From positions 501,453-565,452 of the forward strand of contig CAVTEI010000003.1 in the NCBI GenBank assembly GCA_963733765.1: a stretch of DNA of 64,000 nt. Direction: 5' to 3'. Source of the DNA: an uncultured Acidimicrobiales bacterium. Lineage in GTDB: Bacteria > Actinomycetota > Acidimicrobiia > Acidimicrobiales > DATKAS01. Both the position numbers and the translations under genes were made by a program. The notes under the pieces are model-generated. The model was given only the letters and a program-made list of their open reading frames with translations, was not told the origin of the DNA and did no database searches. Positions 37,341 through 54,135 of the stretch are shown here, piece after piece (positions within the stretch are counted from its first letter, which is position 1; each line of letters starts with the position of its first letter).

Positions 37341-38153
37341 ATGCCGTCGCCTCCCCCCGCTCCCTCGGCAGCGCCTCCGGCAGGGCTCCCGACCGCATCA
37401 CAGAACGTCTCAGTGTTGCCCGTGGTCCCCCATGCCCGGCGGTGCCTGCACTGCGATCCTCCCCTCACCCCCGCGGGCTTCTTTGCCAGGCGCCAACCGG
37501 CGCTGGTCGGTCTCGGGGCGGTGTTCCTTCTCATGGCGGTGGCCGCACTGGTCAGCGGTGGCGCGGTGCTCCTGACGTGGGACGAACCCATTCAGCGGGC
37601 TGTCGAAGCGAGCCGCACGTCTCTGTTCGATGGCATCTTCAGCCGCGTCTCGTTCCTGGGCTCGACCGTGTTCGTCCTCACCTTCGGTTGCGTGCTCGCC
37701 GCGGTCGCGTGGCGGCGATGCCGCACGGTCGGCGTGGCGGTGATCCTCGCGATGCTGAGCCGGCCGCTGCTCGAGTTCACCCTGAAGGCCATCGTCGGTC
37801 GCGACCGTCCGGATCTCGAGCGCATGGTCGACGGCACCGGTCCCTCGTTCCCGAGCGGGCACGTGATGGCGGCGGTCGCAGTGTGGGGGTTGTTGCCGCT
37901 CGTGGTCTCGCTCTACACGAGCAACCGTCGAGTGTGGTGGAGCACGACGGTGGGGTCAGCCGCCTTGATCGTCGCGATCGGCGCGAGCCGCATCTACCTC
38001 GGTGTGCACTGGTTCTCCGACGTGATCGGCGGGCTCATCGTCGGCGCGTTCTTCCTCCTCGGCACGGAATGGGTGCTCACGCGCCAACATCGCCGCGACC
38101 CCTGCGTGCGGGGTTGCGCGTGCGTGCACACTGAGGAACCCGCCAGGCTCTAG
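37341..38153 (+). CDS. PAP2-family membrane phosphatase
   Basis: K....R.RP, SFPSGH, SRIYLGVHWFSDV. Confidence 0.9.
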   Translation: MPSPPPAPSAAPPAGLPTASQNVSVLPVVPHARRCLHCDPPLTPAGFFARRQPALVGLGAVFLLMAVAALVSGGAVLLTWDEPIQRAVEASRTSLFDGIFSRVSFLGSTVFVLTFGCVLAAVAWRRCRTVGVAVILAMLSRPLLEFTLKAIVGRDRPDLERMVDGTGPSFPSGHVMAAVAVWGLLPLVVSLYTSNRRVWWSTTVGSAALIVAIGASRIYLGVHWFSDVIGGLIVGAFFLLGTEWVLTRQHRRDPCVRGCACVHTEEPARL

Positions 38154-38422
38154 CCCTCCCCGACCATCGCTGCGAGCTGCTCTCGGGTGATGTGCATCTG
38201 GATCTCGTGGACCTCGTCGTAGGGGAAGCCGAGGCGCTCGAACTCCTTGATCACCATCTCTTCGCTGTCGGCTTCGTAGAGCGTGACGATGAAGCCCTCG
38301 AAGATGTTCACGGTGACGCTGACCATGGTCGCGTGCGTCCCTTTCAACACGTCGGGCGCGTTCTGCATGAACTCCTCTTGAGAGAGGCCGGGAGCGCGGT
38401 GGATCGTGGCGTACTGCGGCAT
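38150..38422 (-). CDS. DUF4242-like (SCO4226 nickel-binding family) small protein
   Basis: LYEADSEE.V...ERLGFPYDEVHEI pattern; AGGAG RBS. Confidence 0.6.
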   Translation of the reverse strand: MPQYATIHRAPGLSQEEFMQNAPDVLKGTHATMVSVTVNIFEGFIVTLYEADSEEMVIKEFERLGFPYDEVHEIQMHITREQLAAMVGEG

Positions 38423-38466
38423 GGGTTCTCCTCAGGCTCGACGGGAACGAGTCCCACACTACGTCG

Positions 38467-38513
38467 TAGCGATATTCAGCACGCTTGACCCGTAAATCGG
38501 GACGACTTACGGT
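38467..38513 (+). promoter_or_regulatory. Promoter TTGACC-N17-TACGGT (probably leaderless) overlapped by tandem operator pair A
   Basis: -35 at 38485-38490, -10 at 38508-38513, ATG 7 nt later; boxes TAGCGATATTCAGCA (38467) and ACCCGTAAATCGGGA (38488). Confidence 0.75.
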
Positions 38514-38520
38514 CGGGACC

Positions 38521-39720
38521 ATGAGCGCGCTCGCAGAGCGACCCGACCTCGATTTCGCCGAGCGCGACCGCCGTTGGAGTCGCGTGCGCGCCGGCATGGC
38601 CGAGCGAGGCATCGACCTCCTCATCGTGCTCCCCCAATCCGACCCCATCGACGTGCTCTACCTCAGCGGTGGCGAACAGGGTGCGGTGCTCTTCCCGGTC
38701 GATGAGGATCCGTGGATCCTGCTCGGCGGCGAGGACAGCAACCTGGCGGTGGAGCGGGAAGGCTGGATCACTCAGCGCGAAAGCGCGACGCCGTTCGGCT
38801 CGACCAAGGTCCCCTATGGAGCGGCCGTCGCCGACAAGCTGCAGCGGCTGAAGCTGAAGCCGCCGCGGGCGGGCATTGCCGGGCTCGACGGCGACCTGTA
38901 CTCGCACGTCCGGTCGGCTGACGGCTACGCGGTCTACTCGAGCGTGCATCGGATCATCGGCGCGCTCGACGGCTGCGAGATCGTCAACGGGGCGCCGGTC
39001 ATGTCGCGTGCTCGCTACGTGAAGAGCGAAGCCGAGATCGCGGGGTTTCGGGCGGGCATCGAGGTCGCCGAGGCCGGCGCTCGTGCCATTGGTGAGGCGT
39101 ACAGCATCGGGAAGGCACAGGCCGACGCCTACCGCGCCGGCATCGCCGCGATGCTTCAGCCTGGGCTCGGTGTCCCATCGATCGCCTGGTGTCCAGGACC
39201 GTGGAAGACCCCACGGCCGCGGATCGTCGGCACCCCGCCCGGCGACATCTTCGACGGCCTCTGCGTCGCGGCCGAGATCATGCCGGGCTCGCGGATGATG
39301 ACCCAGGTCGCGGAGCCGTTCTTCGCGGGCAGCATCCTCCCCGAACAGCAAGAGGCGTTCGACCTCAATGTCGCCGCGTTCGAAGCGACGCGGGCCGCGT
39401 TGGTGCCGGGCGCGACCTGGCGCGACGTCGAGACCGCGGCGCTCGCGGTCGCCGACGGCACCGATTGGCAGGTGAGCTTCCTCCTCCACGGCGGCTTCGA
39501 CGGACCGCTCTTCATCCCCGTCGACAGCCACGACGACGTTCTCGACGATCGCATCGAGGCCGACACGATCTTCATTGCCAAGCCCACGGTGTTCCCAAGA
39601 GATGCGGAGCGTGTCGTCACGCGCAGCCACGACGTCAGCTGGGGCGACATGGTGGTCGTGAAGGAAGGCGGCGCGGAGCGACTGGGCACCCGCCCCCAGC
39701 GCCTCATCTCCTACGGCTGA
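38521..39720 (+). CDS. M24/creatinase-fold protein
   Basis: ERDRRWSRVR..M...GID, RYVKSEAEI, PGATW.DV, GDMVVV...GAERLG; canonical peptidase metal ligands not evident. Confidence 0.75.
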   Translation: MSALAERPDLDFAERDRRWSRVRAGMAERGIDLLIVLPQSDPIDVLYLSGGEQGAVLFPVDEDPWILLGGEDSNLAVEREGWITQRESATPFGSTKVPYGAAVADKLQRLKLKPPRAGIAGLDGDLYSHVRSADGYAVYSSVHRIIGALDGCEIVNGAPVMSRARYVKSEAEIAGFRAGIEVAEAGARAIGEAYSIGKAQADAYRAGIAAMLQPGLGVPSIAWCPGPWKTPRPRIVGTPPGDIFDGLCVAAEIMPGSRMMTQVAEPFFAGSILPEQQEAFDLNVAAFEATRAALVPGATWRDVETAALAVADGTDWQVSFLLHGGFDGPLFIPVDSHDDVLDDRIEADTIFIAKPTVFPRDAERVVTRSHDVSWGDMVVVKEGGAERLGTRPQRLISYG

Positions 39721-39736
39721 GGCTGCGCTCGGTCCG

Positions 39737-39792
39737 TTGACCGCAGAGAGGGCTAGACCTACGATTCGGGAACTCAATCCTGTTATTCGGTG
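39737..39792 (+). promoter_or_regulatory. Promoter TTGACC-N17-TACGAT overlapped by tandem operator pair B
   Basis: -35 at 39737-39742, -10 at 39760-39765; boxes ACCTACGATTCGGGA (39757) and TCCTGTTATTCGGTG (39778). Confidence 0.75.
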
Positions 39793-39828
39793 CAACCAAG
39801 CCGGATCGTGAAACCAAGGGGGACACAG

Positions 39829-41121
39829 ATGACCTGGGAGCGCAGCGCGATCGCGGATCTGTTCTCGGTCGCACAGAAGGCAGGGCCATACGGTGATCTG
39901 CCGGCGACCCCCGCCGGCCTGGATCCCCAGATCCACGTGTCACGCAACGAGGGCGTCCAGCCCTTCTTCCTCACCTGCGAGCGTGACTCTCTCGTGGTGA
40001 CGCTGAGCGGCGAGGGCTTCGTCGAGTTCCGCGACTCGAACGTGCTGCACTTCCGGATCACCCCGGGCGACTTCGTCTACGTGCCGGCAGGGACGCCGCA
40101 CCGCATCCGGGCCGAACGCTCGATGGTGCAGCTCCGCTACAAGGCGCTCGACCCTGGCAAAGAAGTCGTGTCATGGCACTGCCCCGAATGCAACACGGAG
40201 CTGTGGCGCCGCGAGTTCGACGCCACGAGCGAGATCCCTCAGCGCGTGTATCTCGAGACGACTGCCGAGTTCAACGGCAGCGATGATCTCCGCCGCTGCG
40301 CGAAGTGCAGCGCGGTCCACCCCCCCGTCGACGTCTCGGGCGCGCAGTGGGGAGAGATCGCAACATGGCTCGACGCCGAGCGCGCGGACGCACCTCCCCG
40401 CGCCACCAACAGCGATCGTCTCCCGCCGGCGAACGACCGCGAGCCGCTGCGCACGAACGTCTTCGAGCTCATGCGCACGACGACCACGCAGCTGCTCCCT
40501 CTGTTCCCCTACCTCGGCCCGGGGGCGATGCTGCCCGCGGGCGCGCTGTTCCAGGGGCGACCCGGAGCGCAGTACGGACGCTTCTTCCACCGCAACAGCG
40601 AGGAGGAGGTCTCGGTCTGCTTCGGTGGTCAGAACGCACTCGGGGCCGCCGGCGTGATGTTCATCGGCGGGAAAATGCACGAAGTGCAGGCGCCGCTGCT
40701 CGACACGAACGATCCCAGCGCCTTCCTGATCTCGGTGATCACCCAGCGGCAGCAGGACGAAGGACGCGAGCAGCGTGAGTCAGTGATCTTCCGCTGCTCC
40801 GAGTGCAACAACAAGCTTCACCAGGTCGACTACTCGGCCGAGCTCCCCGACCCCGACCGCCCCGACCTCGTGACCGGAGGACAGGCCGACGACGAGTACG
40901 AGATGTTCCCCACCATGTGGGGCAGCATCCTCTCCACTGACTCGTTCAACTCCGACGAGAAGGCGCGCACTTGCACCCGGTGTGGCCACGTCAATCCCCC
41001 CTTCCCCGCCGAGGCCTGGGGCTGGCAGAACTACGTCGACCGCCACGGGGTCGTCAACGCGGCGCGCCATCTGCTCGACGAGACCGCGAGCAAGGCCGAC
41101 GCCGCGGCGTCAGCTGTCTGA
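39829..41121 (+). CDS. Two-module 3-hydroxyanthranilate 3,4-dioxygenase-like cupin fusion
   Basis: Each half is a cupin plus a rubredoxin-like site (WHCPEC...RRCAKC; FRCSEC...RTCTRC). The halves match the separate genes at 48121-48675 and 48679-49404. Confidence 0.7.
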   Translation: MTWERSAIADLFSVAQKAGPYGDLPATPAGLDPQIHVSRNEGVQPFFLTCERDSLVVTLSGEGFVEFRDSNVLHFRITPGDFVYVPAGTPHRIRAERSMVQLRYKALDPGKEVVSWHCPECNTELWRREFDATSEIPQRVYLETTAEFNGSDDLRRCAKCSAVHPPVDVSGAQWGEIATWLDAERADAPPRATNSDRLPPANDREPLRTNVFELMRTTTTQLLPLFPYLGPGAMLPAGALFQGRPGAQYGRFFHRNSEEEVSVCFGGQNALGAAGVMFIGGKMHEVQAPLLDTNDPSAFLISVITQRQQDEGREQRESVIFRCSECNNKLHQVDYSAELPDPDRPDLVTGGQADDEYEMFPTMWGSILSTDSFNSDEKARTCTRCGHVNPPFPAEAWGWQNYVDRHGVVNAARHLLDETASKADAAASAV

Positions 41122-41833
41122 AGCCGAGCGCGGCCTCGCCCAAGTAGCTCACCTCGAGCAGGTCGCGCCGGTCGCGGAGGTCTTCGGCCCGGCCTTCGAG
41201 CACGAGCTCGCCGTGGTTCAGCACATACGCGCGGTCGGAGATCCCCAACGACAGGTGGGCATGCTGCTCGACGAGCAACAACGCCGTGCCGGTGTCAGTG
41301 ACGACCTGCTTGAGCAACGCGAGCAGGCGCTCGACGATGAGCGGCGCGAGGCCGAGACTCATCTCGTCGACCACCAGCAGACGAGGTCGCGCCGCAAGCC
41401 CGCGCGCGATCGCCAGCATCTGCTGCTCTCCGCCCGACAGCAGACCAGCCTTGCGCTTCGCGAGCGCTGCCAGCTCCGGGAAGAGCTCGAACATGTGGGC
41501 AGCTGCACTCTTGTTGCCACGAGCGCCGAGACGGATGTTCTCCTGCACGGTGAGGTCGAAGAACAGCGCGCGATCTTCGGGCACGAGTGACACGCCCATG
41601 CGCGCGATTGCGCTGGCGTGGATCGAATCGAGCTTGGTCCCGCCGATCCTGATCTCGCCGGCGATGGGCGGCAGCAACCCACACGCCGTGAGCAGCGTCG
41701 TCGTCTTGCCGGCGCCGTTCGGGCCGAGGAGGGCGACGACCTCGCCTTCCGAGACGTGGAGCGAGACGTTGCGGACGACCGCGAGCTGCCCGTAGCCGGC
41801 GAGGAGGTCTTGCACGGCGAGCAGCTCGTTCAC
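41054..41833 (-). CDS. Branched-chain-type ABC ATP-binding protein (LivF-like)
   Basis: GPNGAGKTT, LSGGEQQM, VDEMSLGLAP, LVEQ. Confidence 0.92.
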   Translation of the reverse strand: MNELLAVQDLLAGYGQLAVVRNVSLHVSEGEVVALLGPNGAGKTTTLLTACGLLPPIAGEIRIGGTKLDSIHASAIARMGVSLVPEDRALFFDLTVQENIRLGARGNKSAAAHMFELFPELAALAKRKAGLLSGGEQQMLAIARGLAARPRLLVVDEMSLGLAPLIVERLLALLKQVVTDTGTALLLVEQHAHLSLGISDRAYVLNHGELVLEGRAEDLRDRRDLLEVSYLGEAALGFRQLTPRRRPCSRSRRADGAPR

Positions 41834-42616
41834 GCCGCACCGCCGGCAGGCTCGACCCGGGCGGGATCCTCGCCTAGGTAGGAATGCAGCACATCGGCGT
41901 TGCCGCGGATCTCGGCCGGCGTGCCCGAGGCGATGAGACGTCCGGCGTCGAGCACGTGGATGTAGTCGCAGACCGTGAGCACCAGCGCCATGTCGTGGTC
42001 GACGAGGAGCAGACCGAGCCCCGACGCCGCGACCTGACGGAGGCGAGTCCCGAGCTCCTCGGTCTCGATCCGGTCGAGCCCTGCAGCAGGCTCGTCGAGC
42101 ATCAGGAGAGTGGGCCGGGCGACGATCGCGCGCGCGAGCGCCACCGACTTGCGCTCGGCCTGTGACAGCGAGCTCGGCAGACGATCGGCGACGCCGTCGA
42201 GGCCGAGCAGCGACAGGGCACGGGCGACGTCGTCGCTGTCCTTTCGCGCGCCACCGGAGGATCACGTCAGTGAGCGACCTCCACCACTGCGGGCTCTCGG
42301 TCGTGACCCGCACGTTGTCCGCGACCGTCATGTCCTCGAACAACTCGAGCGACTGGAACGTACGTGCGAGCCTGCTCAGCGCGCGCCGATGGGCGCGCAT
42401 CCGAGTGATGTCCCGGCCTTCGAACCGGATCGAACCGCCCGCAATCGGCGCGAAGCCGGTGACCGCGTCGATGAGCGTCGTCTTGCCCGCGCCGTTCGGC
42501 CCGATCAGGCCGGTGATCCCCTCGCAGGGCACGCGCAGCGACACGTCGTCGACCGCTCGAAGACCGCCGTACACGACGCAAAGCCCCTCGATCTCGAGAA
42601 AGGGCGACGCGCTCAC
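41830..42616 (-). CDS. Branched-chain-type ABC ATP-binding protein (LivG-like; apparent frameshift near 42243)
   Basis: GLIGPNGAGKTT and RTFQ in one frame; LDEPAAGL, VDHDM, YLG in the next. Confidence 0.88.
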
Positions 42617-44656
42617 GGGCTCACTCCCACCGTCGACCGCTCGGGCGCGGGCACCTCGCCGTCGGACGCCGCGGGCTTCGACCCCCGCGACGTCACCGCC
42701 GCCTTGATGCGGCGCAGGCCGCGCTCGAGAGAGTCGGACAGGCCGTCGGGATGGAGGATCGTCGTCGCGACCAGCCCGAGGCCGCCGATCAGGTAGGCGT
42801 ACCGGCCGATGCCGAACCACTGGTCGAGCAACGTCGGGCCGAAGCCGTTCGGCGCGAAGAACAGGCCGGCGACGATGGCGCCCGAGATGCGGGCGACGCC
42901 ACCGATGTAGATGAGTGCGACGAGGAGCAGCGAGGTCAGCACCGAGAACTGCTCACCCGAGAGGTTGCCCGTGAGCAGCCCGGTCATCGATCCCGCCGCG
43001 CCCGCGATGAAGCCGGAGGCCGCGAACGCGAAGAGCTTGGCGCGCCCGAGGCTGACGCCGGACGCGACGGCGGCGCGCTCGTTCGCCCGGATCGCGAGCA
43101 GCTGGCGGCCGATCCCGCTGTTGCGCAGGAAGGCCACCAACACCCCGAGGAGCACGGCGACGATCAGCACCAGGACGCCGAACTGGGGACGCGGATAGGC
43201 CGTCGCATCGGAGGTGCGGATGTTGAAGTCGATGCCGAACAGCTTCACCGCGGGGATCAGGCGGCCGGAGGCGCCGCCGGTGAAGGTGCCGCTGCTGAAC
43301 AGGAACGCATCGAGCGCGACCGCGGCGGCGAGCGTGAGCACGGCGAGGTGGATGCCGCGAGTTCGAAGTGCAGGCAACCCGACCACCAAGGCGAGCGGCG
43401 CGGTGGCCAGGCTCGCGAGCAGCAGCGCGAGTGGGAAAGGCACGCTGAGCTCGGCACTCAGGATGCCGTACATGAATCCGCCGAACCCGGCGAACGCCAT
43501 CTGCGCGAGCGAGATCTGGCCGGCGAACCCGGTGACCACGACGAGCGACAAGCCGAGCACGATCACGATCAGGCTCTGGATCAGCCCGAGCCGCAGGCTG
43601 CTGCCGAGCGTGAAGAGCGCGACCGTGCCCGCGGCAAGGCAGAGCACCGCCGAGAGCACGACCTGCTTCGGGCGCCCAGCGACCGGCATCGCTCGATCGA
43701 TCAGCGTGCCTCGCCACGGGATCGACCGTCCGAACACGACGAGGGCGACGATGATCGCGAGGAACGGCAGGCCCTCCTGAAGGCCGCTCTCGGGCAGCCA
43801 GTCGAACTCGAGGGTGAGCTTGGTCACCTCCGACTGCGCCATGCCGATCGCAAGACCCGCGATGACGGTCACCGAGAACGACGTCATCCGCCCGAGGAGC
43901 GCGGCGCCGAGCGCGGGGACGATGAACAACGTGAACGACGTGGGGTTGAGGCCGGAGATGGGTGTGATGAGGATGCCGGCGAACCCGGCGAGCGCCGTCG
44001 CCACCATCCAGTTCACCGCGCCGAGACGAGTCGACGAGTAGCCGCACACCGCCGCGCCCTTCTCGCTCTCCGCCGCCGCGCGCGTCGCGAGGCCGAACGT
44101 CGTGAACTTGAACACGGCCCACAGCGCGACGCCGATCGCGACAGTGAGCGCAGCGAGGTAGAAGCGATCGCGCGGAACGCTGGTGCCGAGCACGTCGAGC
44201 GGATCGTTCGGCAGGATCGTGCCCGCGGTCTGGCCGGAGATGTTGAAGGCGTCGTCGCCGAGGTTCAGCACGACCATGGCCTGCACGACGATCATCAGGC
44301 CGACCGACGCGACGAGGCGCGCGAGCGGCGGCGAGTTGCGCAGCGGCCGGAAGATGACGAGGAAGATGACGAGGCCGAGCCCCGCCCCATAGAGCAGCGC
44401 GATCAGGAGCGCGGGGATCGGTGGAGATGCCGTCGCCGAAGACCCGAACCCGAGACGGGATGCCGACGACCGGCAACATGAGGTAGCCGGTCGTGCGGAG
44501 GTCGATGTACGCGTACGCGATGAACATCGCGATCGCGCCCTGAGCGAAGTTGATGACGCCCGAGCTGCGGTACTCGAGCACCAGCCCGAGGCCGAGGATG
44601 GCGTAGACCGCGCCCGCGCCGAGCCCGAGAAGGAGGAAGAGGACGTACTGCGACAT
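42613..44656 (-). CDS. Fused LivH-LivM-type ABC permease (apparent frameshift near 44420)
   Basis: YRSSGVINFAQGA at the N-terminus; GQISLAQMAF, AIRANERAA and HPDG after the shift. Confidence 0.88.
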
Positions 44657-44688
44657 CCGCTACCGCTCAGGAAGCGACAAGTCGGCGA

Positions 44689-46014: not shown

Positions 46015-46036
46015 CTGATCCCCCCAGGTAGCCGAT

Positions 46037-46072: not shown

Positions 46073-46096
46073 ACCTGTGCCGAGACGGGCAAGACG

Positions 46097-47128
46097 TCAG
46101 ACGACGGCGCCACTGACCGCCGCGTGGATGTCGAGCAGCGGGAGCACTTGCTCGGGCGGCCGGCGACCCATCCCACATTCGGTGGCCACCCCGAACGACG
46201 GAACGACTTTCGATGCCGCGGCGATGCGGCGCTCGGTGCCCTCGACGCCGTCGGTGAAGTGCACCAGGCCGAGGTAGAGCTCGGTGTCGTCATGCAGCGC
46301 GAGGTCGCCGAGCGGCGCGAAGTAGCCGACGTCGTCGCGGTCGCGCGGCACCGGCAGATGGATCCACGTGAGGGGCCGGTTCACACCTGCGCTCAGCGCG
46401 TTCGCGATGTCGGCGAGCTTGCCTGCGTCGACGGGCTGCTTGAAGTGCTCGTGCTCATAGTCGCCGTAGCAAAGGTGGTATCCGAGCTCGATGTCCGGGG
46501 GCACCCAGCTCGCATAGCGGATGAGACGATCGAGCACTCCTTGGCGAAGGTCACCCTCGAAGTAGGGAGGGAAGACCTCCTCGAGGATGCCGAACTCGGC
46601 CGCGGTGTCCCACTGGAACGCGAGCTTGTCGTGAGGCACGACGGCCGCGATCCGTTCGATCTCACGCTCCATCGCCATCTCGTACGCGGCTTCGAGCGTC
46701 AGTTCGAGGCCGGGCACGACGAACGCACTGATCGGCGCGAACGGGGTGGGGAGACTGACCTGGAACCGCCAGTGCGACGGAAGGTCCCCAGCGGCCTGCA
46801 GGTCCGAGAAGAGCTCCCATGACGAGACCGCGCTCTCCGCGTAGCCGAGCGCTCCGAAGTCGACGTCGTCGGGAGACTCCCCCTCCCTGACCGCGATCCG
46901 CGGGTTCGGGGCGTAGTTGCGCGGACCGGGCGGGATGACCTCGAACTGCGGGTCGGCCATGAACCGGTGCAGCTGCCACACGATCCAATCGAGCCGTGGC
47001 CCGGTCTCCCCGTCGGTCACCCGGCGGAGTCGATCACCGAGCCGCTCCGCGCACGCGCGGAACACGGCCTCGGCGTCGGGCAACGACACCGAGCCGACGA
47101 GGTGCGCGCCATTCGGATTTCCAGCCAT
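46097..47128 (-). CDS. MetE/UroD-superfamily-like Zn TIM-barrel protein of unknown function
   Basis: HLVGS, DGETG.R, RFQVSLPTP, QWD, HLCYGD (HxC) and ATECGMGR (Cys) Zn-type ligands. Confidence 0.7.
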   Translation of the reverse strand: MAGNPNGAHLVGSVSLPDAEAVFRACAERLGDRLRRVTDGETGPRLDWIVWQLHRFMADPQFEVIPPGPRNYAPNPRIAVREGESPDDVDFGALGYAESAVSSWELFSDLQAAGDLPSHWRFQVSLPTPFAPISAFVVPGLELTLEAAYEMAMEREIERIAAVVPHDKLAFQWDTAAEFGILEEVFPPYFEGDLRQGVLDRLIRYASWVPPDIELGYHLCYGDYEHEHFKQPVDAGKLADIANALSAGVNRPLTWIHLPVPRDRDDVGYFAPLGDLALHDDTELYLGLVHFTDGVEGTERRIAAASKVVPSFGVATECGMGRRPPEQVLPLLDIHAAVSGAVV

Positions 47129-47149
47129 GTCTCCCCCTGTGTCGTGAAG

Positions 47150-48121
47150 TTACGAACCGAGCTCGTCGTAGACGCGCGCCGCCGCGGGGTGCAGCGGGAT
47201 CGGCGTCGCACGCATGTGCTCGGGCACGAATGGATAGTTGAGCGGGCTGCGCTCGGACGGGATGTGGTGGTACTGCCGCTCGATCGCGTGCGCCGTGTGC
47301 ACCATGCACCAGGTGAGCAAGTACGCGACGTCGTCGGGCATGTCCTCGTGCACGAGCACGAGGAAGCTGCTGAAGTCGAGCGTCAGCAGGTCGTCGTCGC
47401 ATCCAGGGAGGTACCCACCGCGAAGGATGGCTCGCGGCCAGCGCAGCTCGTGCTCGAGAGCGCTGAGAGCGGCGTCCTCCATCGGGACGAAGTTCGTCTG
47501 CCGGGCGACGCCGACCTCCTGCCAGGGGGGCGTCATGATCGCCTCGTGGAACACCGCGTCGGCGAGGCCGTCGCGGTACCAGTGGAGCGGCGGGAACGGG
47601 CGCTCGTCCTCCAGGAAGCTGCCACCCCACCCGAGGAACTCGTCGCGCGAGATGCCGTGGGCGGCCATCACGCGGTTCACTCCATATCCGACCGTGTTCA
47701 CTCCGTCGTTTTGGGAGGTCGCGATCTTGAGCGGCACCTTCTTCTCACGCAGATCCTCGAACGTGCGCACGCCGTGCTCGGCCCCGACGGCGAAGACCAA
47801 CCGATCGTCTTGGGGCATCACGCCCAGCGCCCGCACCTCGGGGAGGGGTGTGCCCTCGAACATGCCGACACCGGCAACGGCCGAGTAGCCGACGTAGGCG
47901 GGGACGACCATCGAGAGATCGACCTCGTGCTTGACGATCGCGTCGACGGCGTCGGTGCCGCCGCGACCACTCCAGATCGCGGTGCGCGACCCGGGCCCCG
48001 CGCGATCGTTGAACTCCTGGGCGAGCCAGCCGCAGATGCGATGAAGGTTCGCCTGTCCCCAGTCACCTTGGAACTGGAGCGTGACGGCGCGGTCGATGTG
48101 GGGCTGCCCCGGCTTGGGCAT
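47150..48121 (-). CDS. TAXI/NMT1-like periplasmic-binding-fold protein lacking a signal peptide
   Basis: GVRTFEDL, LLVLVHEDMPDDVAY and PIPLHPAAARVYDELG (TAXI-type end); ATG overlaps the upstream TGA; hydrophilic N-terminus. Confidence 0.7.
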   Translation of the reverse strand: MPKPGQPHIDRAVTLQFQGDWGQANLHRICGWLAQEFNDRAGPGSRTAIWSGRGGTDAVDAIVKHEVDLSMVVPAYVGYSAVAGVGMFEGTPLPEVRALGVMPQDDRLVFAVGAEHGVRTFEDLREKKVPLKIATSQNDGVNTVGYGVNRVMAAHGISRDEFLGWGGSFLEDERPFPPLHWYRDGLADAVFHEAIMTPPWQEVGVARQTNFVPMEDAALSALEHELRWPRAILRGGYLPGCDDDLLTLDFSSFLVLVHEDMPDDVAYLLTWCMVHTAHAIERQYHHIPSERSPLNYPFVPEHMRATPIPLHPAAARVYDELGS

Positions 48122-48675: not shown

Positions 48676-48678
48676 CGG

Positions 48679-49404
48679 TCAGGCCGTCGCTTGCGACTCG
48701 GCCGCCTTTGCCAGGAAGACGGCGCGCGCGTCGTTCACGGTGCGCTGATGCATCGACCACTTCGCCCAGCCCCACTCGTCCATCGGGAACGGCGGGTTCA
48801 GATGGCCGCATTTCCCGCACGTGCGCAGGGACTCATCCGAGTTGAAGCGGGCGACCGGCTCGACCGACTCGTTCAATGTGGGGAACGCGGGGAAGCGATC
48901 CTCGTGGTCCTCAGTGGGGCGATCGGTGAACTCGTGCGCGAAGAGGTGCTCGTGGCACTTCACGCACTTCCAGATCAACCGCTCGGTCTGCGCGTCGGTG
49001 TCGCTCTGCCGCTGCACGATCGTCACGAGCAGGAAGCTGTCGGGCGACTGAGGATCGCGCAGGAAGCTGTTGACGCCGTGCAGGTTCGGCTGCGCCATGA
49101 TGCGACCGGTCTCGAGCAGCGCGCCGTTCGCACCCCACACGAACGTGATCTCGTCGACGGTGTTGAAGTGAAAGAAGTGCCCGACGTCGTAGCCCGGGCC
49201 ACCGCGGAAGAGCGCGCCGGAGTACACGATCGCCCCCGGCCCGTAGTAGGGGAACAGGGGCACGAGTTGGGTGTTCGCGTGCTGCATCCGCTCGTAGACG
49301 TTGACCTTCAGCGGCTCGCGCGCACCGGTCGGCGGTGGGATGCGGTGCTCCTCGGCGGGTGCCGTCGAAGTCCGTGTCATCGAAGCCCGTGTCATCTGCA
49401 CCAT
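48679..49404 (-). CDS. 3-HAO-like cupin, 'B' subunit (H-x5-E...H triad present)
   Basis: EPLKVNVYE, QLVPLFPY, FFHFNTVDE, NLHGV, WKCVKC...RTCGKCGH.NPPFP; homologous to the C-half of 39829-41121. Confidence 0.7.
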   Translation of the reverse strand: MVQMTRASMTRTSTAPAEEHRIPPPTGAREPLKVNVYERMQHANTQLVPLFPYYGPGAIVYSGALFRGGPGYDVGHFFHFNTVDEITFVWGANGALLETGRIMAQPNLHGVNSFLRDPQSPDSFLLVTIVQRQSDTDAQTERLIWKCVKCHEHLFAHEFTDRPTEDHEDRFPAFPTLNESVEPVARFNSDESLRTCGKCGHLNPPFPMDEWGWAKWSMHQRTVNDARAVFLAKAAESQATA

Positions 49405-49429
49405 GGGTTCCCCCTCGGGCCGTGAGCTG

Positions 49430-49465
49430 TCCTGATTGTCAGGATGTCTCTCTTGTATTTCAGCA
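49430..49465. promoter_or_regulatory. Tandem operator pair D, including the perfect palindrome TCCTGA-TTG-TCAGGA
   Basis: TCCTGATTGTCAGGA (49430) and TCTTGTATTTCAGCA (49451), 21-bp period. Confidence 0.75.
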
Positions 49466-49494
49466 CTCGTGGGTGGAACGTGCAACGCCCGAGG

Positions 49495-50289
49495 TCAGCC
49501 GATCTCGGCAAGGCGATCGGTCACGCGTTTCGCCGCCGCCTGCGCGGCCTGAATGACCGCGGGAAAGTCGTCCTCTGTGATTTCGAACGCCAGGCACGCC
49601 ACGCTGATACCGGCGGTCAACTTGCCGTCAGGCCCGAAGACCGGGGCGGCCACCCCTCGCACGCCGACGTCGCGCTCGCCATTGCTCAGGGCATAGCCGC
49701 GCTCTCGAATGTCAGCGAGTTCGCGGCGCAGATCATCCGGATCGGTGATCGTCGTGGCGGTGAAGCGCTCGAACGGCGCAAGCGAATCGACGACGCGGTC
49801 GGCGTCCTCTTCGTACGCGAGCAGCACCTTCGCCGGCGCTCCCGCGTGCAAGGGGAGCAGGTGGCCTCTCTCGTAGCTCAGCCGGATGGGCCGGGCGATC
49901 TCGACGCGCTCGACGCACACCGCCATGTTCCCGGAGCGTCGGGTGAGGAGCACCGTCTCGTCGACCTCACGGGCGAGGTCGCGCATGATCGGCAGCGCGA
50001 TCTCAGAAAGGCCGAGTCCCTCACGCGCGATGCGAGCGAGCTCGAACACGCGCGATCCGAGCCGAAAGCCACCCCGCACGGCGTCTTCCTCGAGGAGGTT
50101 CGACGTCCGCAGGCTCTGCAGGTAGCGATAGGTCGTGCTGCGCGACATCCCGAGCCGCTCGGCGATGTCACCCGCCGAGAGGACCGGCGTGTTCAGGTCG
50201 AACAGGAAGAGCACGTCGATCGCACGATCAGCGGTGCTGTTGCGCCCCGTCGTGGATGCTCCCGTTTCACTGGGCACCTGTCCCATCAT
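49495..50289 (-). CDS. IclR-family transcriptional regulator
   Basis: ADRAIDVL, IAERLGMSRSTTYRYL, PLHAGAPAKVLLA, IRERGYA....E...GVRGVAAPVF. Confidence 0.95.
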   Translation of the reverse strand: MMGQVPSETGASTTGRNSTADRAIDVLFLFDLNTPVLSAGDIAERLGMSRSTTYRYLQSLRTSNLLEEDAVRGGFRLGSRVFELARIAREGLGLSEIALPIMRDLAREVDETVLLTRRSGNMAVCVERVEIARPIRLSYERGHLLPLHAGAPAKVLLAYEEDADRVVDSLAPFERFTATTITDPDDLRRELADIRERGYALSNGERDVGVRGVAAPVFGPDGKLTAGISVACLAFEITEDDFPAVIQAAQAAAKRVTDRLAEIG

Positions 50290-50316
50290 ATGGGTCAGCC
50301 ATCTGGGCGAGCATCT

Positions 50317-50363
50317 TCACGATATTCAGGACGCTTGACCCGTTTTTCGGGAGTCGTTACCGT
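50317..50363 (+). promoter_or_regulatory. Promoter TTGACC-N17-TACCGT overlapped by tandem operator pair E
   Basis: Boxes TCACGATATTCAGGA (50317) and ACCCGTTTTTCGGGA (50338); nearly identical to 38471-38502; GAGGAGG RBS downstream. Confidence 0.8.
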
Positions 50364-50385
50364 GAGATCGACCTGAGGAGGATCG

Positions 50386-51459
50386 ATGGAGTTCGGTGTG
50401 CAGTTCTTCCCATCGGTCGGGCCCGAGACGACGCCGGCGAGCCAGTACTTCGCGGAGGCGCTCCGGCTCACCGAGCAATCGGAGGCCCTCGGGTTCACGA
50501 ATGTCCGCACTGTCGAGCACTACTTCCATCACTACGGCGGATACTCGCCGAACCCGCTCATCTTCCTCGCGGCCGCGGCAGAGCGCACGACGACGATGCG
50601 TCTCATCACCGGCGCGGTGCTCCCCGTCTTCAACCACCCCCTGAAGCTCGCCGGCGAGATCGGCATGCTCGACGCGATCTCGGGCGGTCGACTCGAGGTC
50701 GGCTTCGCACGCGCGTTCCTGCCGCACGAGTTCCAACGCTTCGGGGTGAGCCTCGACGAGAGCCGCGAGCGCTTCGACGAGGGCATCGCGATCGTCGACC
50801 GCCTGCTCTGCGAGGAAGACGTCGCGTTCGAAGGTCGGTTCCACCGCTTTCCCGCAACGACCTCACTGCCCCGGCCGACCCAACAGCCGCGGCCTCCGTT
50901 CTGGGTTGCCGCGCTCGCGACTGAGGCCTCGTTCGTCAGCGCCGGCACGCACGGCTACTCGATCATGGCGATCCCGCTCGCCGGCGCGAAGCTCGCGTCC
51001 CTGCTGTCGGCCTACCGAGACGCTTGGCGCAGCGCCGGTCATCCCGGTGATGGGCGAGTGATGCTCGCGTTCCACATGCTCTGCCACGATGACGAAGCAA
51101 CCGCGCACGATCTCGCTCGCGACCTCATCAATCAGTACCTCGCGAGCCTCGTCGACGGCGCGAGCGGTTGGCTCGACGGCTCGAGCTCGGACGACTACCC
51201 CGGGTACGACGCGATCATCCGAGGCCTCAAGGCCGACTCATTCGAGTCGCAGCTCGCGCAGGGCGCAGTGTGGGTCGGCTCCCCCGACTCGATCTCCGAG
51301 CAGATCGCCGCGTACGCCGAGGCCGTCGGGGGATTCGAGATCGCCTCGATGCAAGTGAACTTCGCGGGCCTTCCCTATGAGGTCGCCACCCGCTCGCTCG
51401 AGCTCTTCGGGCGCGAGGTCTTGCCGAAGTTCAGCCCGCTCGCTGTCACGACGCCGTGA
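50386..51459 (+). CDS. LLM-class (luciferase-like) flavin-dependent oxidoreductase/monooxygenase
   Basis: VEHYFH.YGGYSPNP, LDAISGGRLEVG, PRPTQQPRPPFWVA, LELFGREVLP. Confidence 0.9.
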   Translation: MEFGVQFFPSVGPETTPASQYFAEALRLTEQSEALGFTNVRTVEHYFHHYGGYSPNPLIFLAAAAERTTTMRLITGAVLPVFNHPLKLAGEIGMLDAISGGRLEVGFARAFLPHEFQRFGVSLDESRERFDEGIAIVDRLLCEEDVAFEGRFHRFPATTSLPRPTQQPRPPFWVAALATEASFVSAGTHGYSIMAIPLAGAKLASLLSAYRDAWRSAGHPGDGRVMLAFHMLCHDDEATAHDLARDLINQYLASLVDGASGWLDGSSSDDYPGYDAIIRGLKADSFESQLAQGAVWVGSPDSISEQIAAYAEAVGGFEIASMQVNFAGLPYEVATRSLELFGREVLPKFSPLAVTTP

Positions 51460-52343
51460 AGCTGGCGCTCTTCGACGACTGGCGGCTCGGAGTTGTCGAT
51501 GCTGACGCGCAGATGATCTGGGACGTGACTGACGGACTCACCGGACCGCGCGATCCCGATCCCTTTGGCGCCGGATGGTGGGTGCGCATGTGCCGCGACT
51601 TCGACCGGGTGCGGCCGAAGATCGATCGCTTGGTCGCGTCGAGCGACGCCCGTCCGCTCGGCGATGTCACGCTCCGTGCCCCCGTGCTGAACCCCGGCAA
51701 GGTGCTCGCGACCGCATCGAACTACGGCGAGCATGTCGCCGAGATGCGCGAGGTCGTCCTGGACCGCGTGGCTGGGCACGTGGACGGATGGCTCTTGAGC
51801 TTCGACGTGTTTCTGAAAGCGCCTTCGTCGATCGTCGGTCCGGGCGACGCGGTGATCCTCCCCGCCTCGGAAGTCGAGAACGGCCGCGAGATCCACCACG
51901 AGAGCGAGCTGGCGGTGGTCATCGGCCGGGAGGCCTCGCACATCCCTGAGGCGGATGCCCTCGAGCACGTGCTCGGCTACACGGTCGCTCTCGACATGAC
52001 GGTGCGCGGCGAGGGCGATCGCTCGCGTCGCAAGAGCTACGACACGTTCACTCCGATCGGACCATGGTTGGTCACGAGCGACGAGATCGGCGACCCGGGT
52101 GGGCTCGACGTTCGCCTCGACGTCGATGGCGAGTGCCGGCAACGAGCACGTACCGGCGACATGCTCGTCAGCGTTGCTGGGATCATCTCGTACGCGTCTG
52201 CGGTGATGCGCCTCGATCCCGGTGATGTCATCCTCACGGGCGCACCCCCCGGAGTCGGCGAGGTGCACGCGGGAGAGGTGATGGTGTCGCACATCAGCGG
52301 CATCGGCACGATGCGCAACCCAGTGCAGATAGGAGCGCGATGA
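51456..52343 (+). CDS. Fumarylacetoacetate hydrolase family protein
   Basis: NYGEH, FLKAPSS, HHESEL, RKSYDTFTPIGPW, PGDVILTG.P.GV. Confidence 0.92.
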   Translation: MKLALFDDWRLGVVDADAQMIWDVTDGLTGPRDPDPFGAGWWVRMCRDFDRVRPKIDRLVASSDARPLGDVTLRAPVLNPGKVLATASNYGEHVAEMREVVLDRVAGHVDGWLLSFDVFLKAPSSIVGPGDAVILPASEVENGREIHHESELAVVIGREASHIPEADALEHVLGYTVALDMTVRGEGDRSRRKSYDTFTPIGPWLVTSDEIGDPGGLDVRLDVDGECRQRARTGDMLVSVAGIISYASAVMRLDPGDVILTGAPPGVGEVHAGEVMVSHISGIGTMRNPVQIGAR

Positions 52344-53443
52344 ACGGCCCCCGAGACGACCCCCGAGACCTGCAAGACCGGCTCGACTCCTTCTACGCCG
52401 ACCTCGCATCGGTCGACCTCCAACCCCTCTGGACCCAGACCAAGAACCTGCTTCCGGCGTTCCCCGCTCCCGCCGCCATCCCGTGGTTGTGGCAGGGGGC
52501 GACGCTCCGCGCGCTCGCGGCGCAAGCACGCGACCTCATCACGATCGAACGCGGCGGCGAACGACGCGTGCTCGCCCTCGCGAACCCCGGGCTCGGCGGC
52601 GCGCCGTTTGCGACGCCGACGCTCTGGGGCGCGATCCAAGCTCTCGGTCCGCACGAACGCGCTCCCGCGCATCGCCACACGGCCTCAGCGATTCGCTTCG
52701 TCCTCGAGGGCGACGGCGTGTGGACAACTGTCGACGGCGACGCGTGCCGCATGCATCCGGGCGACCTCGTGCTGACCCCCGCGTGGACATTCCACGACCA
52801 CACGAACGAGGGCGACGAAGCCATGACCTGGTTCGACGGCCTCGACCTCCCCCTCGTCAACACCCTCGATGCCGTCTTCTACGAGAACCATCCCGACTTC
52901 AACCAGCCGGTGCGGGGATACGACCTGTCGGAGCAGACCTATGCCGGCAGCGGCCTTCTGCCGTACGGAACGTCGAACGACGCGCCCCACTCGCCGCTCC
53001 TCGTGTACCGGTGGGCACAGAGCGACGCGATGCTCGCCCGCCTGCTGGCCTCCAACGGAGGGGTCATGGCGAGCATCGAGTTCGCCGACCCCACCTCGGG
53101 CGGACCGGCGCTGCCGACGATGACCTGCGCGCTGCACCGCGTTGTTCCCGGCGGGCGGTCCATCGCGACTCGCAAGTCCGGCAGCTCGATCTTCGTGGTG
53201 TATCGCGGTGCCGGCCGAAGCGTGATTGATGGACAGGCCTTCGACTGGACTGCGGGCGACATGTTCGTCGTTCCGTCGTGGAAGTCCGTCGACCACGAGG
53301 CGGAGACGACCAGCGAGCTGTTCGAGGTGAGCGACGAAGCCGCGCTCCGCGCGTTGCGCCTGTTCCGCAGCGAGACGGTCGACGAGCCTCAGGACGTGAA
53401 GGCCGTCTTCCGACCCCGGGCCCTCGAAGCGATCAGGACGTGA
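52340..53443 (+). CDS. Gentisate/salicylate 1,2-dioxygenase-family bicupin
   Basis: ERRVLALANPGL, APAHRHTASAIRF, GDLVLTP.W..HDH, WFDGLD.P, GDMFVVPSW. Confidence 0.88.
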   Translation: MNGPRDDPRDLQDRLDSFYADLASVDLQPLWTQTKNLLPAFPAPAAIPWLWQGATLRALAAQARDLITIERGGERRVLALANPGLGGAPFATPTLWGAIQALGPHERAPAHRHTASAIRFVLEGDGVWTTVDGDACRMHPGDLVLTPAWTFHDHTNEGDEAMTWFDGLDLPLVNTLDAVFYENHPDFNQPVRGYDLSEQTYAGSGLLPYGTSNDAPHSPLLVYRWAQSDAMLARLLASNGGVMASIEFADPTSGGPALPTMTCALHRVVPGGRSIATRKSGSSIFVVYRGAGRSVIDGQAFDWTAGDMFVVPSWKSVDHEAETTSELFEVSDEAALRALRLFRSETVDEPQDVKAVFRPRALEAIRT

Positions 53444-54135
53444 CCCAAGCGATCGACGAGGTGGTGCGGGCAAACCGCGCCCTCGCTGCGGCTGGACAGT
53501 CCGATCTGATCTGGGGACACGCGTCGGTTCGTGACCCCGCGGGCCGAGGCGTGTGGATGAAGGCAGCCGGCTGGGGCTTCGAGGAGGTGACGGCGGAGCG
53601 AGTCGTGCTCGTGTCCGACGATGGTGAGGTGCTCGCCGGCACCGGCGCGCGCCACATCGAGTACCCGATCCACAGCGAGGTGATGAAGCGACGCCCCGAT
53701 GTCGGCGCCGTGGTTCACACCCACGCCCTGTCGGCGGTGGCGTTCGCATCACTCGACGTGCCCCTGCGCGCGCTGTCCCACGATGGGGCGTGGTTCGCGG
53801 AGCCCGACATCCCGAGGTTCCGCGCCTCTGGGAGCTTGGTCCGGACAGCGGAGCTCGGCGCGGCGCTGGCCTGTGCGGTCGGCGACGGACCCGGGTGCCT
53901 CATCCCGAACCACGGGCTCGTGACGGTCGGCGCATCGGTCGCACAGGCCGTGATGGGCGCTGTCGTCCTCGAGCGCGCCTGCAAGGTGCAGCTCGCGGCG
54001 ATGGCCGCCGGCGGGCCGCAGGTGTGGTCGGACAAAGAGGAAGTCGAGCTCAAGCAGCGCGAGGTGTGGACGCCGGAACAGATCAGCGCCGGCTTCGACT
54101 ACCTGTGCCGCGCTGCGGACGCCGGCCGCAGCTAA
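53440..54135 (+). CDS. Class II aldolase/adducin-family Zn protein
   Basis: WGHAS.R, EYPIHSE, VVHTH, NHG. Confidence 0.88.
   Translation: MTQAIDEVVRANRALAAAGQSDLIWGHASVRDPAGRGVWMKAAGWGFEEVTAERVVLVSDDGEVLAGTGARHIEYPIHSEVMKRRPDVGAVVHTHALSAVAFASLDVPLRALSHDGAWFAEPDIPRFRASGSLVRTAELGAALACAVGDGPGCLIPNHGLVTVGASVAQAVMGAVVLERACKVQLAAMAAGGPQVWSDKEEVELKQREVWTPEQISAGFDYLCRAADAGRS

Follow-up and report, generated by a model that had tools for sequence, protein, structure and literature searches.

In a 64,000-nt stretch of an uncultured Acidimicrobiales genome (contig CAVTEI010000003.1; hereafter the window), positions 38150–54135 hold an island of genes that the evidence supports as one coherent, uncharacterised, IclR-linked catabolic locus. 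Its core is a module of four proteins: two cupins, which we call cupL and cupS, a cytoplasmic TAXI-fold protein and a small SCO4226-like protein. Our reading, which we put forward tentatively, is that the island encodes an importer-fed, IclR-linked pathway for an aromatic carboxylate, probably a hydroxy- or amino-substituted one, in which a heteromeric and probably ferredoxin-dependent cupin oxygenase would act upstream of a decarboxylase, a luciferase-like monooxygenase (LLM), a ring-cleaving bicupin and an FAH-family hydrolase. From the observed gene content, folds, conserved residues, cupin paralogy, a shared motif and the cross-phylum co-occurrence of the core genes we infer all of the catalytic activities, the order of the steps and the electron route. 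The real novelty lies in the module itself, which is rare, conserved, unnamed and frequently partnered by electron carriers.

Genes were called from a listing of open reading frames (ORFs), GC3 filtering, and Pfam and NCBIfam profile scans of the window (Table 1). A preliminary description of this DNA had reported a fused and a split cupin system resembling 3-hydroxyanthranilate dioxygenase (3-HAO), and both are present. All three proteins match the 3-HAO models TIGR03037 and PRK13264 weakly, scoring 61 and 47.3 bits (fused protein), 40.1 and 34.5 bits (cupS) and 25.6 and 19.4 bits (cupL) against cut-offs of 220 and 145.95. The two systems are paralogous copies of one conserved module: in BLASTP comparisons the N-terminus of the fused 443-aa protein is cupS-like (44% identity over 178 aa, E 2e-54) and its C-terminus cupL-like (40% identity over 229 aa, E 6e-57). 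An AlphaFold2 model of cupL, which is of moderate confidence (pLDDT 72.9) and departs from 3-HAO by an additional segment at the N-terminus and a long helix at the C-terminus, matched 3-HAO in all of its top 22 Foldseek results (E 6e-8 to 1e-4, TM ∼0.5 normalised by target).

Conserved residues suggest a division of labor within the pair. In an alignment of 18 diverse cupL sequences, H106, N108, E112, H136, C174, C177 and C223 do not vary at all and C226 hardly varies; judging from their spacing, H106, E112 and H136 would be the counterparts of the 3-HAO metal ligands. The 66 cupS sequences have no conserved His/Glu/His set, with the window copy carrying Ser where 56 of the 66 have His, while C118, C121, C157 and C160 are invariant in a 20-row alignment (A3), the last two being kept in 64 of the 66. 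On this basis cupL looks catalytic and cupS looks like a degenerate partner. The two are fused in the window, and fused forms of 405–568 aa also make up about 8 of the 150 best cupL family representatives; this recurrence argues that cupL and cupS act as a pair.

The cupL family has few members: among 1.84 billion representatives, a profile search returned 223 at E ≤ 0.001 and 97 at E ≤ 1e-30, and clustering at 90% gave 238 relatives; the 120 listed have no Pfam domain and are nearly all annotated as ‘hypothetical protein’, the exceptions being two Nonomuraea entries named ‘cupin domain-containing protein’ and one mis-called transcription factor. For cupL itself we found no Pfam match, and an ESM Atlas look-up gave no cluster at or above 0.9 and none with a common Pfam family. 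Literature searches found no publication describing the cupin pair or its partners. The window's own genome carries just the split and the fused copy, and within its order the family was found in 3 of 151 sampled genomes, all of one genus, and in 0 of 148 genomes of other genera. A maximum-likelihood tree built from 85 cupL sequences places the split copy in one deep clade and the fused C-domain in another, and each is joined there by its Acidimicrobiales orthologues. The clade of the fused domain is grouped with loci of Eremiobacterota and Kribbella that are linked to M24 or contain it. We rejected a division of cupL into two clean subfamilies, one M24-linked and one TAXI-linked, since the M24 label needs at least four changes on this tree. 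Two cupL/cupS pairs are also found in locus L040, where they are inverted, and in locus L050, where they stand in tandem, and thus module duplication is not unique to the window.

The third member of the module had been listed as a TAXI-fold protein, and it does have the NMT1_3 fold, which it shares with the TAXI receptors of TRAP transporters (TIGR02122; 1us4, 9oz4). It scores 68.6 bits against the TIGR02122 cut-off of 84.35 and matches solved TAXI receptors at E ∼1e-6. In one respect the assignment needs correction: since the protein has no signal peptide, as is also true of 47 distant homologues, it is not a periplasmic receptor. The homologues start 10–25 residues before a conserved GDWGQANLHRICGW motif and are, judging from their N-termini, cytoplasmic proteins rather than TRAP receptors. 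Unlike a TRAP receptor gene, the window copy has no adjoining TRAP membrane gene, and its neighbors are instead cupS and a MetE-like barrel. The TAXI gene in the available text of the Sagittula paper is an ordinary TRAP receptor adjoining its membrane component, and not this module. A predicted complex of cupL, cupS and the TAXI-fold protein, with the latter as partner, scored 0.00 and carries no weight either way.

The fourth member, a small ORF that the preliminary description did not name, scores 25.2 bits against the PF14026 cut-off of 28.5 (38.7 bits for its orthologue in locus L075), has a GC3 of 0.91 and is 40–53% identical to a small ORF beside cupL/cupS in more than 50 loci. SCO4226 itself is, in the available text of its description, a nickel-binding protein with no role assigned (PMC4186839). 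Nickel binding would suit the idea that cupL and cupS are not an oxygenase, but rather a cupin-type metal-dependent isomerase, decarboxylase or hydratase, or a metal-handling complex with the SCO4226-like protein; we regard this as very improbable. Cupins do perform many non-redox reactions, and one carrier of the module (L047; TAXI–cupL–cupS at 241–2435) is a metagenome-assembled genome (MAG) of the Thermodesulfobacteriota, mostly anaerobes, in which an O2-dependent enzyme is odd; the locus may have been misbinned or may point to a different chemistry. Against a non-oxygenase stand the nearest fold, which is that of an O2-activating enzyme, the association of the module with electron-transfer genes, and the aerobic aromatic-catabolic genes that neighbor it in most loci.

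To describe these neighbors, we scanned one genome per species and found 125 relatives, from which 80 loci were kept, 8 close and 72 distant, with 56 of the distant loci at least 15 kb long. Neighbors were mapped by tblastn over 10 kb on either side (E ≤ 1e-8, at least half of the query covered). The eight close loci (L001–L008), from Acidimicrobiales MAGs and one record labelled Bifidobacteriaceae, repeat the window arrangement, which is kept across relatives diverged to 72–95% protein identity. The latter record (L008, ‘uncultured Bifidobacteriaceae bacterium’) holds the whole Acidimicrobiales-type island at 72–81% protein identity and its cupL branches with the Acidimicrobiales copies, making its taxonomic label doubtful. 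Across the 56 distant loci, the neighbors of cupL are cupS (56), SCO4226-like (42), TAXI-fold (42), ferredoxin (32), FAH (30), IclR (25), aldolase-fold (21), ferredoxin reductase (20), gentisate-type bicupin (18), 3-hydroxybenzoate 6-monooxygenase-like (18), VOC dioxygenase (18), dienelactone hydrolase (16), MhpA-like hydroxylase (15), anthrone-oxygenase-like (13), M24 (5), MetE-like barrel (5), LLM (1) and ABC importer genes (0). The aldolase-fold protein, bicupin and FAH hydrolase occur all together in 12 of these loci, from Nocardia, Mycobacterium/Mycolicibacterium, Streptomyces, Embleya, Microbacterium, Amycolatopsis and Actinomadura. Co-occurrence elsewhere, for which a cluster search had been proposed as the check, therefore holds for the core genes but not for the importer and the LLM, which are confined to this lineage.

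Carriers span Actinomycetota, Alphaproteobacteria, Myxococcota, Chloroflexota, Binatota and others, and several arrangements recur among them. In many actinobacteria one strand carries genes for FAH, bicupin, aldolase fold, 3-hydroxybenzoate 6-monooxygenase-like enzyme, ferredoxin, sometimes reductase, TAXI and SCO4226-like protein, and the divergent strand carries IclR, cupL, cupS, MhpA-like, FAH and VOC, such that in the commonest actinobacterial arrangement the module lies beside two complete hydroxylase–dioxygenase–FAH sets. In Leucobacter and Microbacterium the order is IclR, cupL, cupS, SCO4226-like, TAXI, reductase, ferredoxin and aldolase fold. Several mycobacteria have a second bicupin and a DHDPS-type aldolase upstream, with dienelactone hydrolase, reductase, ferredoxin and a CMD-family protein downstream, and the Alphaproteobacteria have only TAXI, divergent from MarR, SCO4226-like, cupL and cupS. 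Because they are common to the recurrent arrangements, cupL, cupS, the SCO4226-like protein and the TAXI-fold protein form the invariant heart of the module.

The association that most shapes our reading is with electron carriers. Electron-transfer genes, whether for ferredoxin, ferredoxin reductase, PDR/VanB-type reductase or flavodoxin, occur in 39 of the 56 distant loci, and the carriers are of three unrelated kinds, the actinobacterial one being a 4Fe-4S ferredoxin with a reductase. On plasmid pANTQ-1 of Sphingobium sp. AntQ-1, a signal-less PhnD/SsuA-like binding-fold protein, which stands in for the TAXI-fold protein, is followed by cupL and cupS, and a PDR/VanB-type reductase (FAD_binding_6, NAD_binding_1, Fer2) begins 4 nt after cupS. 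This locus (L087, 6180–11179) lies between IS elements, with nadC and the PhnD/SsuA-like gene ahead of cupL; the available text of the published pANTQ-1 study does not discuss these cupL/cupS plasmid genes. Plasmid pGal_C110 of Phaeobacter gallaeciensis carries genes for a Reductase_C-type reductase, an SCP2 protein, cupL, cupS, IclR and a flavodoxin, with TAXI-fold, DLH, MhpA-like, FAH and VOC genes nearby. Four carrier genomes of 3.5–11.4 Mb have 3–5 homologues of the cluster ferredoxin each, and in every case the cluster's own copy matches best; with so few homologues per genome, the association is not due to chance.

Since nothing else in these clusters obviously needs electrons, an electron-dependent oxygenase is favored over a plain ring-cleaving dioxygenase. 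An upstream oxygenase of this kind fits the cupin module at least as well as a ring-opening enzyme does, because electron carriers are present in most of the distant loci and because in the commonest actinobacterial arrangement the module lies beside sets that are already complete. A bolder form of this reading, to which we give limited credence and which we consider unlikely as it stands, is that the four-protein set represents a new class of multicomponent non-heme-iron cupin oxygenase, with rubredoxin-like Cys4 sites fed by ferredoxin/reductase doing a Rieske-like job and a TAXI-fold subunit recruited from transporter-type solute-binding proteins to capture the substrate in the cytoplasm or to take part in catalysis, that in this island starts the breakdown of an aromatic carboxylate which no known pathway handles.

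The preliminary description had instead counted three ring-cleavage systems and proposed successive ring openings in a new pathway. The cupins are there, but the fused and split systems are one duplicated module, and the logic of successive openings is not supported as it was put. In the version of this idea that we weighed, the split pair cupL/cupS and its fused counterpart would both be genuine ring-cleaving enzymes, extradiol-type dioxygenases like 3-HAO in which one subunit is active and the other structural. They would open two or three rings or ring-like intermediates in succession, and the ferredoxins found elsewhere would do no more than re-reduce the iron, as XylT-type ferredoxins re-reduce the oxidized active-site iron of catechol 2,3-dioxygenases. 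We consider this somewhat unlikely, although it accounts well for the uniform Foldseek result, for the invariant H-x5-E…H pattern and Cys4 site of cupL, for the weak 3-HAO matches of all three cupin proteins, for the many alphaproteobacterial loci that consist of MarR, SCO4226-like, cupL, cupS and TAXI without any electron donor, and for the lack of a donor in this island. It accounts less well for the commonest actinobacterial clusters, which already have their two complete hydroxylase/dioxygenase/FAH sets, and for the pairing with reductase plus ferredoxin, or with a PDR/VanB-type reductase 4 nt after cupS, which exceeds the usual repair ferredoxin. Muconate-semialdehyde-type enzymes (a dehydrogenase or an ACMSD-like decarboxylase) are also missing from the window.

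The absence of the usual 3-HAO partners from the window, already pointed out in the preliminary description, was borne out by a search of the window's own genome: kynureninase, Amidohydro_2 (13 matches in the genome) and aldehyde dehydrogenase (10 matches in the genome) all gave 0 matches inside the window. The only kynureninase-like gene of the genome lies ∼0.9 Mb from the island (G000:C3:1450648-1451824; 226.5 bits against a cut-off of 246.4). It is read in two adjoining frames, which may be another single-base assembly error of the kind described below for the importer.

Several observations weigh against the electron-dependent pathway that we prefer. No ferredoxin or reductase gene was found in the island, nor a close homologue of the cluster ferredoxin in the genome, and 17 of the 56 distant loci lack an electron-transfer gene. 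In fold and metal triad cupL matches a ring-cleaving dioxygenase, and bacterial 3-HAO keeps a Cys4 site while needing no electron donor, so that the Cys4 sites alone prove nothing; for these reasons our preference for electron dependence stays modest. Related genera are not independent, and the co-occurrence counts therefore overstate the number of separate events; the counts also reflect only neighbors within 10 kb that cover at least half of the tblastn query. The LLM was found in 1 and the importer in 0 of the 72 distant loci, and their link to the module rests on this genus. An FMN-dependent LLM would moreover need a flavin reductase, and none was seen in the island. We agree with the earlier judgement that the substrate cannot be read from sequence.

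With these reservations, the route we propose would begin with uptake of the compound by the Liv-type ABC importer and its oxidation in the cytoplasm by a heteromeric non-heme-iron cupin enzyme, with cupL as the catalytic subunit and cupS as its partner. The TAXI-fold protein may assist this enzyme as a substrate-binding or decarboxylase-like partner, and the SCO4226-like protein as a small metal-binding protein. The rubredoxin-like Cys4 sites of the cupins would take electrons from a ferredoxin/reductase pair, provided in trans in this genome. The class II aldolase-fold enzyme could then remove the carboxyl group adjoining the new hydroxyl, and the LLM would add a further hydroxyl, at the position where a 3-hydroxybenzoate 6-monooxygenase-like flavoprotein would act elsewhere. 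Finally, the gentisate/salicylate-type bicupin would open the ring and the FAH enzyme would hydrolyze the product. The fused cupin copy and the M24/creatinase-fold hydrolase may act on a related compound or a side branch.

The later steps draw on the following evidence. The aldolase-fold protein exceeds the PF00596 cut-off (141 against 22.2 bits) and falls short of that for PhtC (NF053537; 92.8 against 200), and its solved relatives include Mlr6791 (2z7b), NovR and TqaM; aromatic decarboxylases and oxygenases are among these relatives, and the protein is probably a decarboxylase. The closest solved relative of the LLM is RslO1 (7bip, E 1.3e-90), and none of the NCBIfam subfamilies scored above cut-off. 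RslO1 is FMN-dependent and, in the available text of its description, is proposed to epoxidize a quinone ring in rishirilide biosynthesis (PMC8093152). The LLM is found only in the close relatives and in the single distant locus given above; its position in the distant clusters is held by the 3-hydroxybenzoate 6-monooxygenase-like enzyme (351 bits), beside the bicupin and FAH genes. The bicupin falls below both equivalog cut-offs (284.6 against 442.1 bits for TIGR02272, 247.6 against 650 for MabB), with 3nst and 2phd as its best solved relatives (E 2e-85), and the FAH hydrolase scores 150.5 bits against the HpaG-C cut-off of 276.4. For a possibly bicyclic substrate the only hints are the nearness of the LLM to RslO1, which acts on a polycyclic quinone, and the anthrone-oxygenase-like genes in 13 of the 56 loci. 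Beyond the island by 2.2 kb, at 56323–57027 (+), lies a TIGR03086-family metal-binding protein (133 bits, cut-off 83). It scores 62.6 against a cut-off of 50 with the domain model for mycothiol-dependent maleylpyruvate isomerase as well, and might supply the isomerase required in a gentisate-type route.

By the tests run, the island resembles four known systems in part and is a member of none. With bacterial 3-HAO (NbaC/HAO; 1yfu, 1zvf) it shares the cupin fold (Foldseek E 6e-8, probability 1.0), the His-x5-Glu…His pattern and a C-terminal CxxC…CxxC, but its proteins score 19–61 bits against cut-offs of 146–220. Where 3-HAO is a homodimer, we find two different subunits or their fusion, one subunit lacking the metal triad; the fixed TAXI-fold and SCO4226-like partners, and often ferredoxin/reductase, are not known for 3-HAO, and no kynurenine-pathway genes lie near the island. 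With the gentisate, salicylate and 5-aminosalicylate pathways it shares a bicupin adjoining FAH and IclR, to which the distant clusters add the 3-hydroxybenzoate 6-monooxygenase-like enzyme; pathways of this kind in Corynebacterium are likewise IclR-regulated (GenR). The island differs from them in having no maleylpyruvate isomerase, the TIGR03086/MDMPI-family protein lying outside it, in having an LLM in place of the flavoprotein hydroxylase, and in the translational coupling of an aldolase-fold protein to the dioxygenase.

The phthalate operon of Gram-positive bacteria consists of the oxygenase phtAa/Ab, the ferredoxin phtAc, the reductase phtAd, the class II aldolase-fold decarboxylase phtC and the IclR-type regulator phtR. 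The order cupL–cupS–SCO4226-like–TAXI–reductase–ferredoxin–aldolase fold, with IclR, found in Leucobacter, Microbacterium, Nocardia and others, parallels it with an oxygenase-like pair, electron carriers and a PhtC-like protein (72–93 bits to the PhtC model, cut-off 200). In contrast to that operon, the cupin pair replaces the Rieske oxygenase, there is no dihydrodiol dehydrogenase, and the window is without ferredoxin and reductase. A resemblance to two-component oxygenases such as vanillate demethylase (VanAB) and phthalate dioxygenase lies in the PDR/VanB-family reductase directly downstream of cupS on pANTQ-1, but a cupin pair with Cys4 sites is found where those systems have a Rieske protein. 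No characterized NCBIfam equivalog cut-off was reached by any of the 10 island proteins scanned, nor by the IclR regulator (BhcR 149.7 against 350 bits) or the importer's binding protein. In this sense the locus is uncharacterised, as the preliminary description held in proposing a new pathway, although its case for successive ring openings does not carry over.

A shared operator had also been proposed, and a 40-nt motif does occur exactly twice in the 64 kb, against 0 occurrences in 100 shuffles, with the two copies identical at 35 of 40 positions. It comprises a -35-like TTGACC, a CCCG-N5-CGGG inverted repeat and a -10-like TACNGT. Copy 1 lies between the SCO4226-like gene and the M24 operon and copy 2 between the IclR-led and LLM operons, and thus all four transcription units flank a motif copy in two divergent intergenic regions. 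The IclR regulator is the presumed protein that binds it. The motif core at the IclR/LLM region is kept in 6 of the 8 close loci (L001–L005 and L007) and in 6 of 80 overall; the two close loci without it are L006, a locus of just 2.6 kb, and L008, which stands furthest from the window among the eight. When two mismatches were allowed, the relaxed core gave 3 matches against 3.84 expected, which is chance, so only exact copies count. Packing of the island's genes is tight, and within the LLM operon the LLM, FAH, bicupin and aldolase-fold genes are linked by 4-nt start/stop overlaps.

This shared motif bears on whether the island is instead a mosaic of parts with different substrates: a gentisate-type lower pathway, the cupin/TAXI module with the importer, and the M24 enzyme with the fused cupin. 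The partners of cupL/cupS do vary, from aldolase fold/bicupin/FAH to second bicupin/DHDPS-type aldolase, DLH/CMD, MhpA-like/VOC/FAH and M24/DLH; the LLM, importer and MetE-like barrel are rare or absent in distant loci, and the cupL tree assigns the split copy and the fused one to separate deep clades. We nonetheless judge a mosaic improbable, given that the same 40-nt motif precedes the M24 and LLM operons and also lies in the IclR–cupL divergent region, that 12 of the 56 distant loci combine cupL/cupS with all three of aldolase fold, bicupin and FAH, and that the whole arrangement is kept in relatives at 72–95% protein identity. The island's GC content of 0.67–0.70, compared with 0.65–0.71 for the whole window, shows no compositional break. 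Flanking PAP2 and LuxR-TPR genes are absent from all related loci and so lie outside the island.

The importer that would feed the pathway is interrupted in the assembled sequence. Its LivF and LivG ATPases read as one 588-aa ORF through single-base differences at 41126, towards the 3' end of LivF, and at 42242 in LivG, and its permease is shifted in frame at 44417 by an extra C in a C-run relative to L001 and L002. In both relatives the permease is intact, with 680 aa in L001, whose protein aligns with the window in two frames, and LivG and LivF are encoded separately; contigs of three other metagenomes lack one base at 41126 (X1–X3), 42242 (X1–X3) and 44417 (X1, X3). Since the genes are intact in these relatives and metagenomes, the frame shifts are most likely assembly indels, probably long-read homopolymer errors, and we rejected the possibility that the genes are pseudogenes as less likely. 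Reading them as indels also removes an odd 68-nt convergent overlap of the ATPase ORF with the fused cupin. The binding protein is found only in the close relatives L001–L008, and a sequence search of the PDB gave no informative solved relative for it.

Two further enzymes of the island belong to divergent families. The M24-like protein scores just under the cut-offs for Peptidase_M24 (PF00557; 21.9 bits, cut-off 23) and Creatinase_N (20.4 bits), and a PDB search with the single sequence gave no useful match, but its family profile matches prolidase 1pv9 (E 1.6e-18) and creatinase 1chm (E 2e-13). Opposite the prolidase segments VVIDLGA, NSDITR, TIEPG and RIEDTV, which we take to hold the metal ligands, the family consensus has T/E, G/Q, K and G, which suggests a metal-free, creatinase-like variant. 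An M24 gene lies beside cupL/cupS in 7 of the 72 distant loci. The 343-aa protein had been called a MetE-like Zn barrel, rightly so: its AlphaFold2 model (pLDDT 92.7) has MetE C-terminal barrels as top Foldseek matches (E 1e-8), followed by MtaA and UroD, and H218, C220 and C318 are invariant in a His-x-Cys…Cys pattern. By sequence it matches nothing in Pfam (including Meth_synt_2), NCBIfam or the PDB, and it has at least 4860 homologues; all 120 of those listed bear the name ‘hypothetical protein’ and are without a Pfam domain.

In the current picture, Rieske, flavin, diiron or P450 oxygenases start the aerobic breakdown of aromatics, and few types of dioxygenase open the rings. The four-protein set adds to this picture a compact, rare module with no Pfam model and no publication found. 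Should it prove to be a cupin oxygenase that depends on electrons and has a binding-protein subunit in the cytoplasm, its enzyme architecture would be new, and in soils and sediments it would serve as a new marker for an unidentified substrate class. Should it prove to be a heteromeric dioxygenase of the 3-HAO type, that family would gain a new quaternary form as well as new substrates. Cultured carriers, namely Phaeobacter gallaeciensis DSM 26640, Mycolicibacterium setense DSM 45070, Streptomyces xylophagus NRRL B-12029, Nocardia vinacea NBRC 16497 and Microbacterium insulae, make the module testable.

The features of the island are collected in Table 1; apart from the small SCO4226-like ORF, whose end at 38150 coincides with the left edge of the stretch as first described, all had been listed, and each listed element was confirmed in its place.

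Table 1. Genes and motif copies of the island, with positions in the window.
Feature	Positions	Strand	Basis and remarks
SCO4226-like (DUF4242) small protein, 90 aa	38150..38422	-	PF14026, E 1.8e-5, 25.2 bits
40-nt promoter/operator motif, copy 1	38471..38510	+	Exact pattern match
M24/creatinase-fold enzyme	38521..39720	+	ORF opens at TTG 38485, inside the motif; likely start ATG 38521
Fused cupS-cupL protein, 443 aa	39790..41121	+	Likely start M14 at 39829; BLASTP against cupS and cupL
LivF-type ATPase (~41126-41833) and LivG-type ATPase (~41840-42598)	41054..42610	-	Two ABC_tran domains
Fused LivH/LivM-type permease	42613..44656	-	BPD_transp_2, 147 bits
Importer substrate-binding protein, periplasmic/lipoprotein-type	44689..46014	-	Peripla_BP_6, 108.8 bits
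MetE-like Zn (His/Cys/Cys) TIM barrel, 343 aa, unnamed family	46097..47128	-	No Pfam match; fold by AlphaFold2 and Foldseek
Cytoplasmic TAXI-fold protein, ~323 aa from M71	47150..48121	-	NMT1_3, 69.5 bits; start overlaps cupS stop
cupS, degenerate 3-HAO-like cupin with Cys4 site, 184 aa	48121..48675	-	3-HAO NCBIfam, 40 bits
cupL, presumed catalytic 3-HAO-fold cupin with Cys4 site	48679..49407	-	ORF to 49485; homologues begin near M27
IclR-family regulator, opens minus-strand operon	49495..50289	-	IclR_C 132.7 bits, HTH_IclR 48.8 bits
40-nt promoter/operator motif, copy 2	50321..50360	+	Within 96-bp IclR/LLM divergent region
FMN-type luciferase-like monooxygenase (LLM)	50386..51459	+	Bac_luciferase, 197.8 bits
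FAH-family hydrolase	51456..52343	+	FAA_hydrolase, 192 bits; start overlaps LLM stop by 4 nt
Gentisate/salicylate 1,2-dioxygenase-type bicupin	52340..53443	+	TIGR02272 284.6 bits; two Cupin_2 stretches
Class II aldolase/adducin-fold protein	53440..54135	+	Aldolase_II, 141 bits; GTG start overlaps bicupin TGA stop

A rhizosphere metatranscriptome (run X23) contains contigs that match parts of the M24, permease, binding-protein, LLM and FAH genes at 92–97%; they stem from relatives, may include DNA carry-over and were not counted as evidence of expression. Elsewhere in the window, 59702–62296 (-) encodes an 864-aa fusion of an N-terminal FMO/Pyr_redox_3-type flavin monooxygenase with a C-terminal Abhydrolase_3 esterase, which by its domains looks like a Baeyer–Villiger-type oxygenase joined to an esterase that would open its lactone or ester product. 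Upstream of the island lie a second LLM (30634–31782), a DACNK/DAC diadenylate-cyclase-like protein (32024–33040) and a YceI-like protein (33061–33630), the last divergent from an HxlR regulator (33704–34174).

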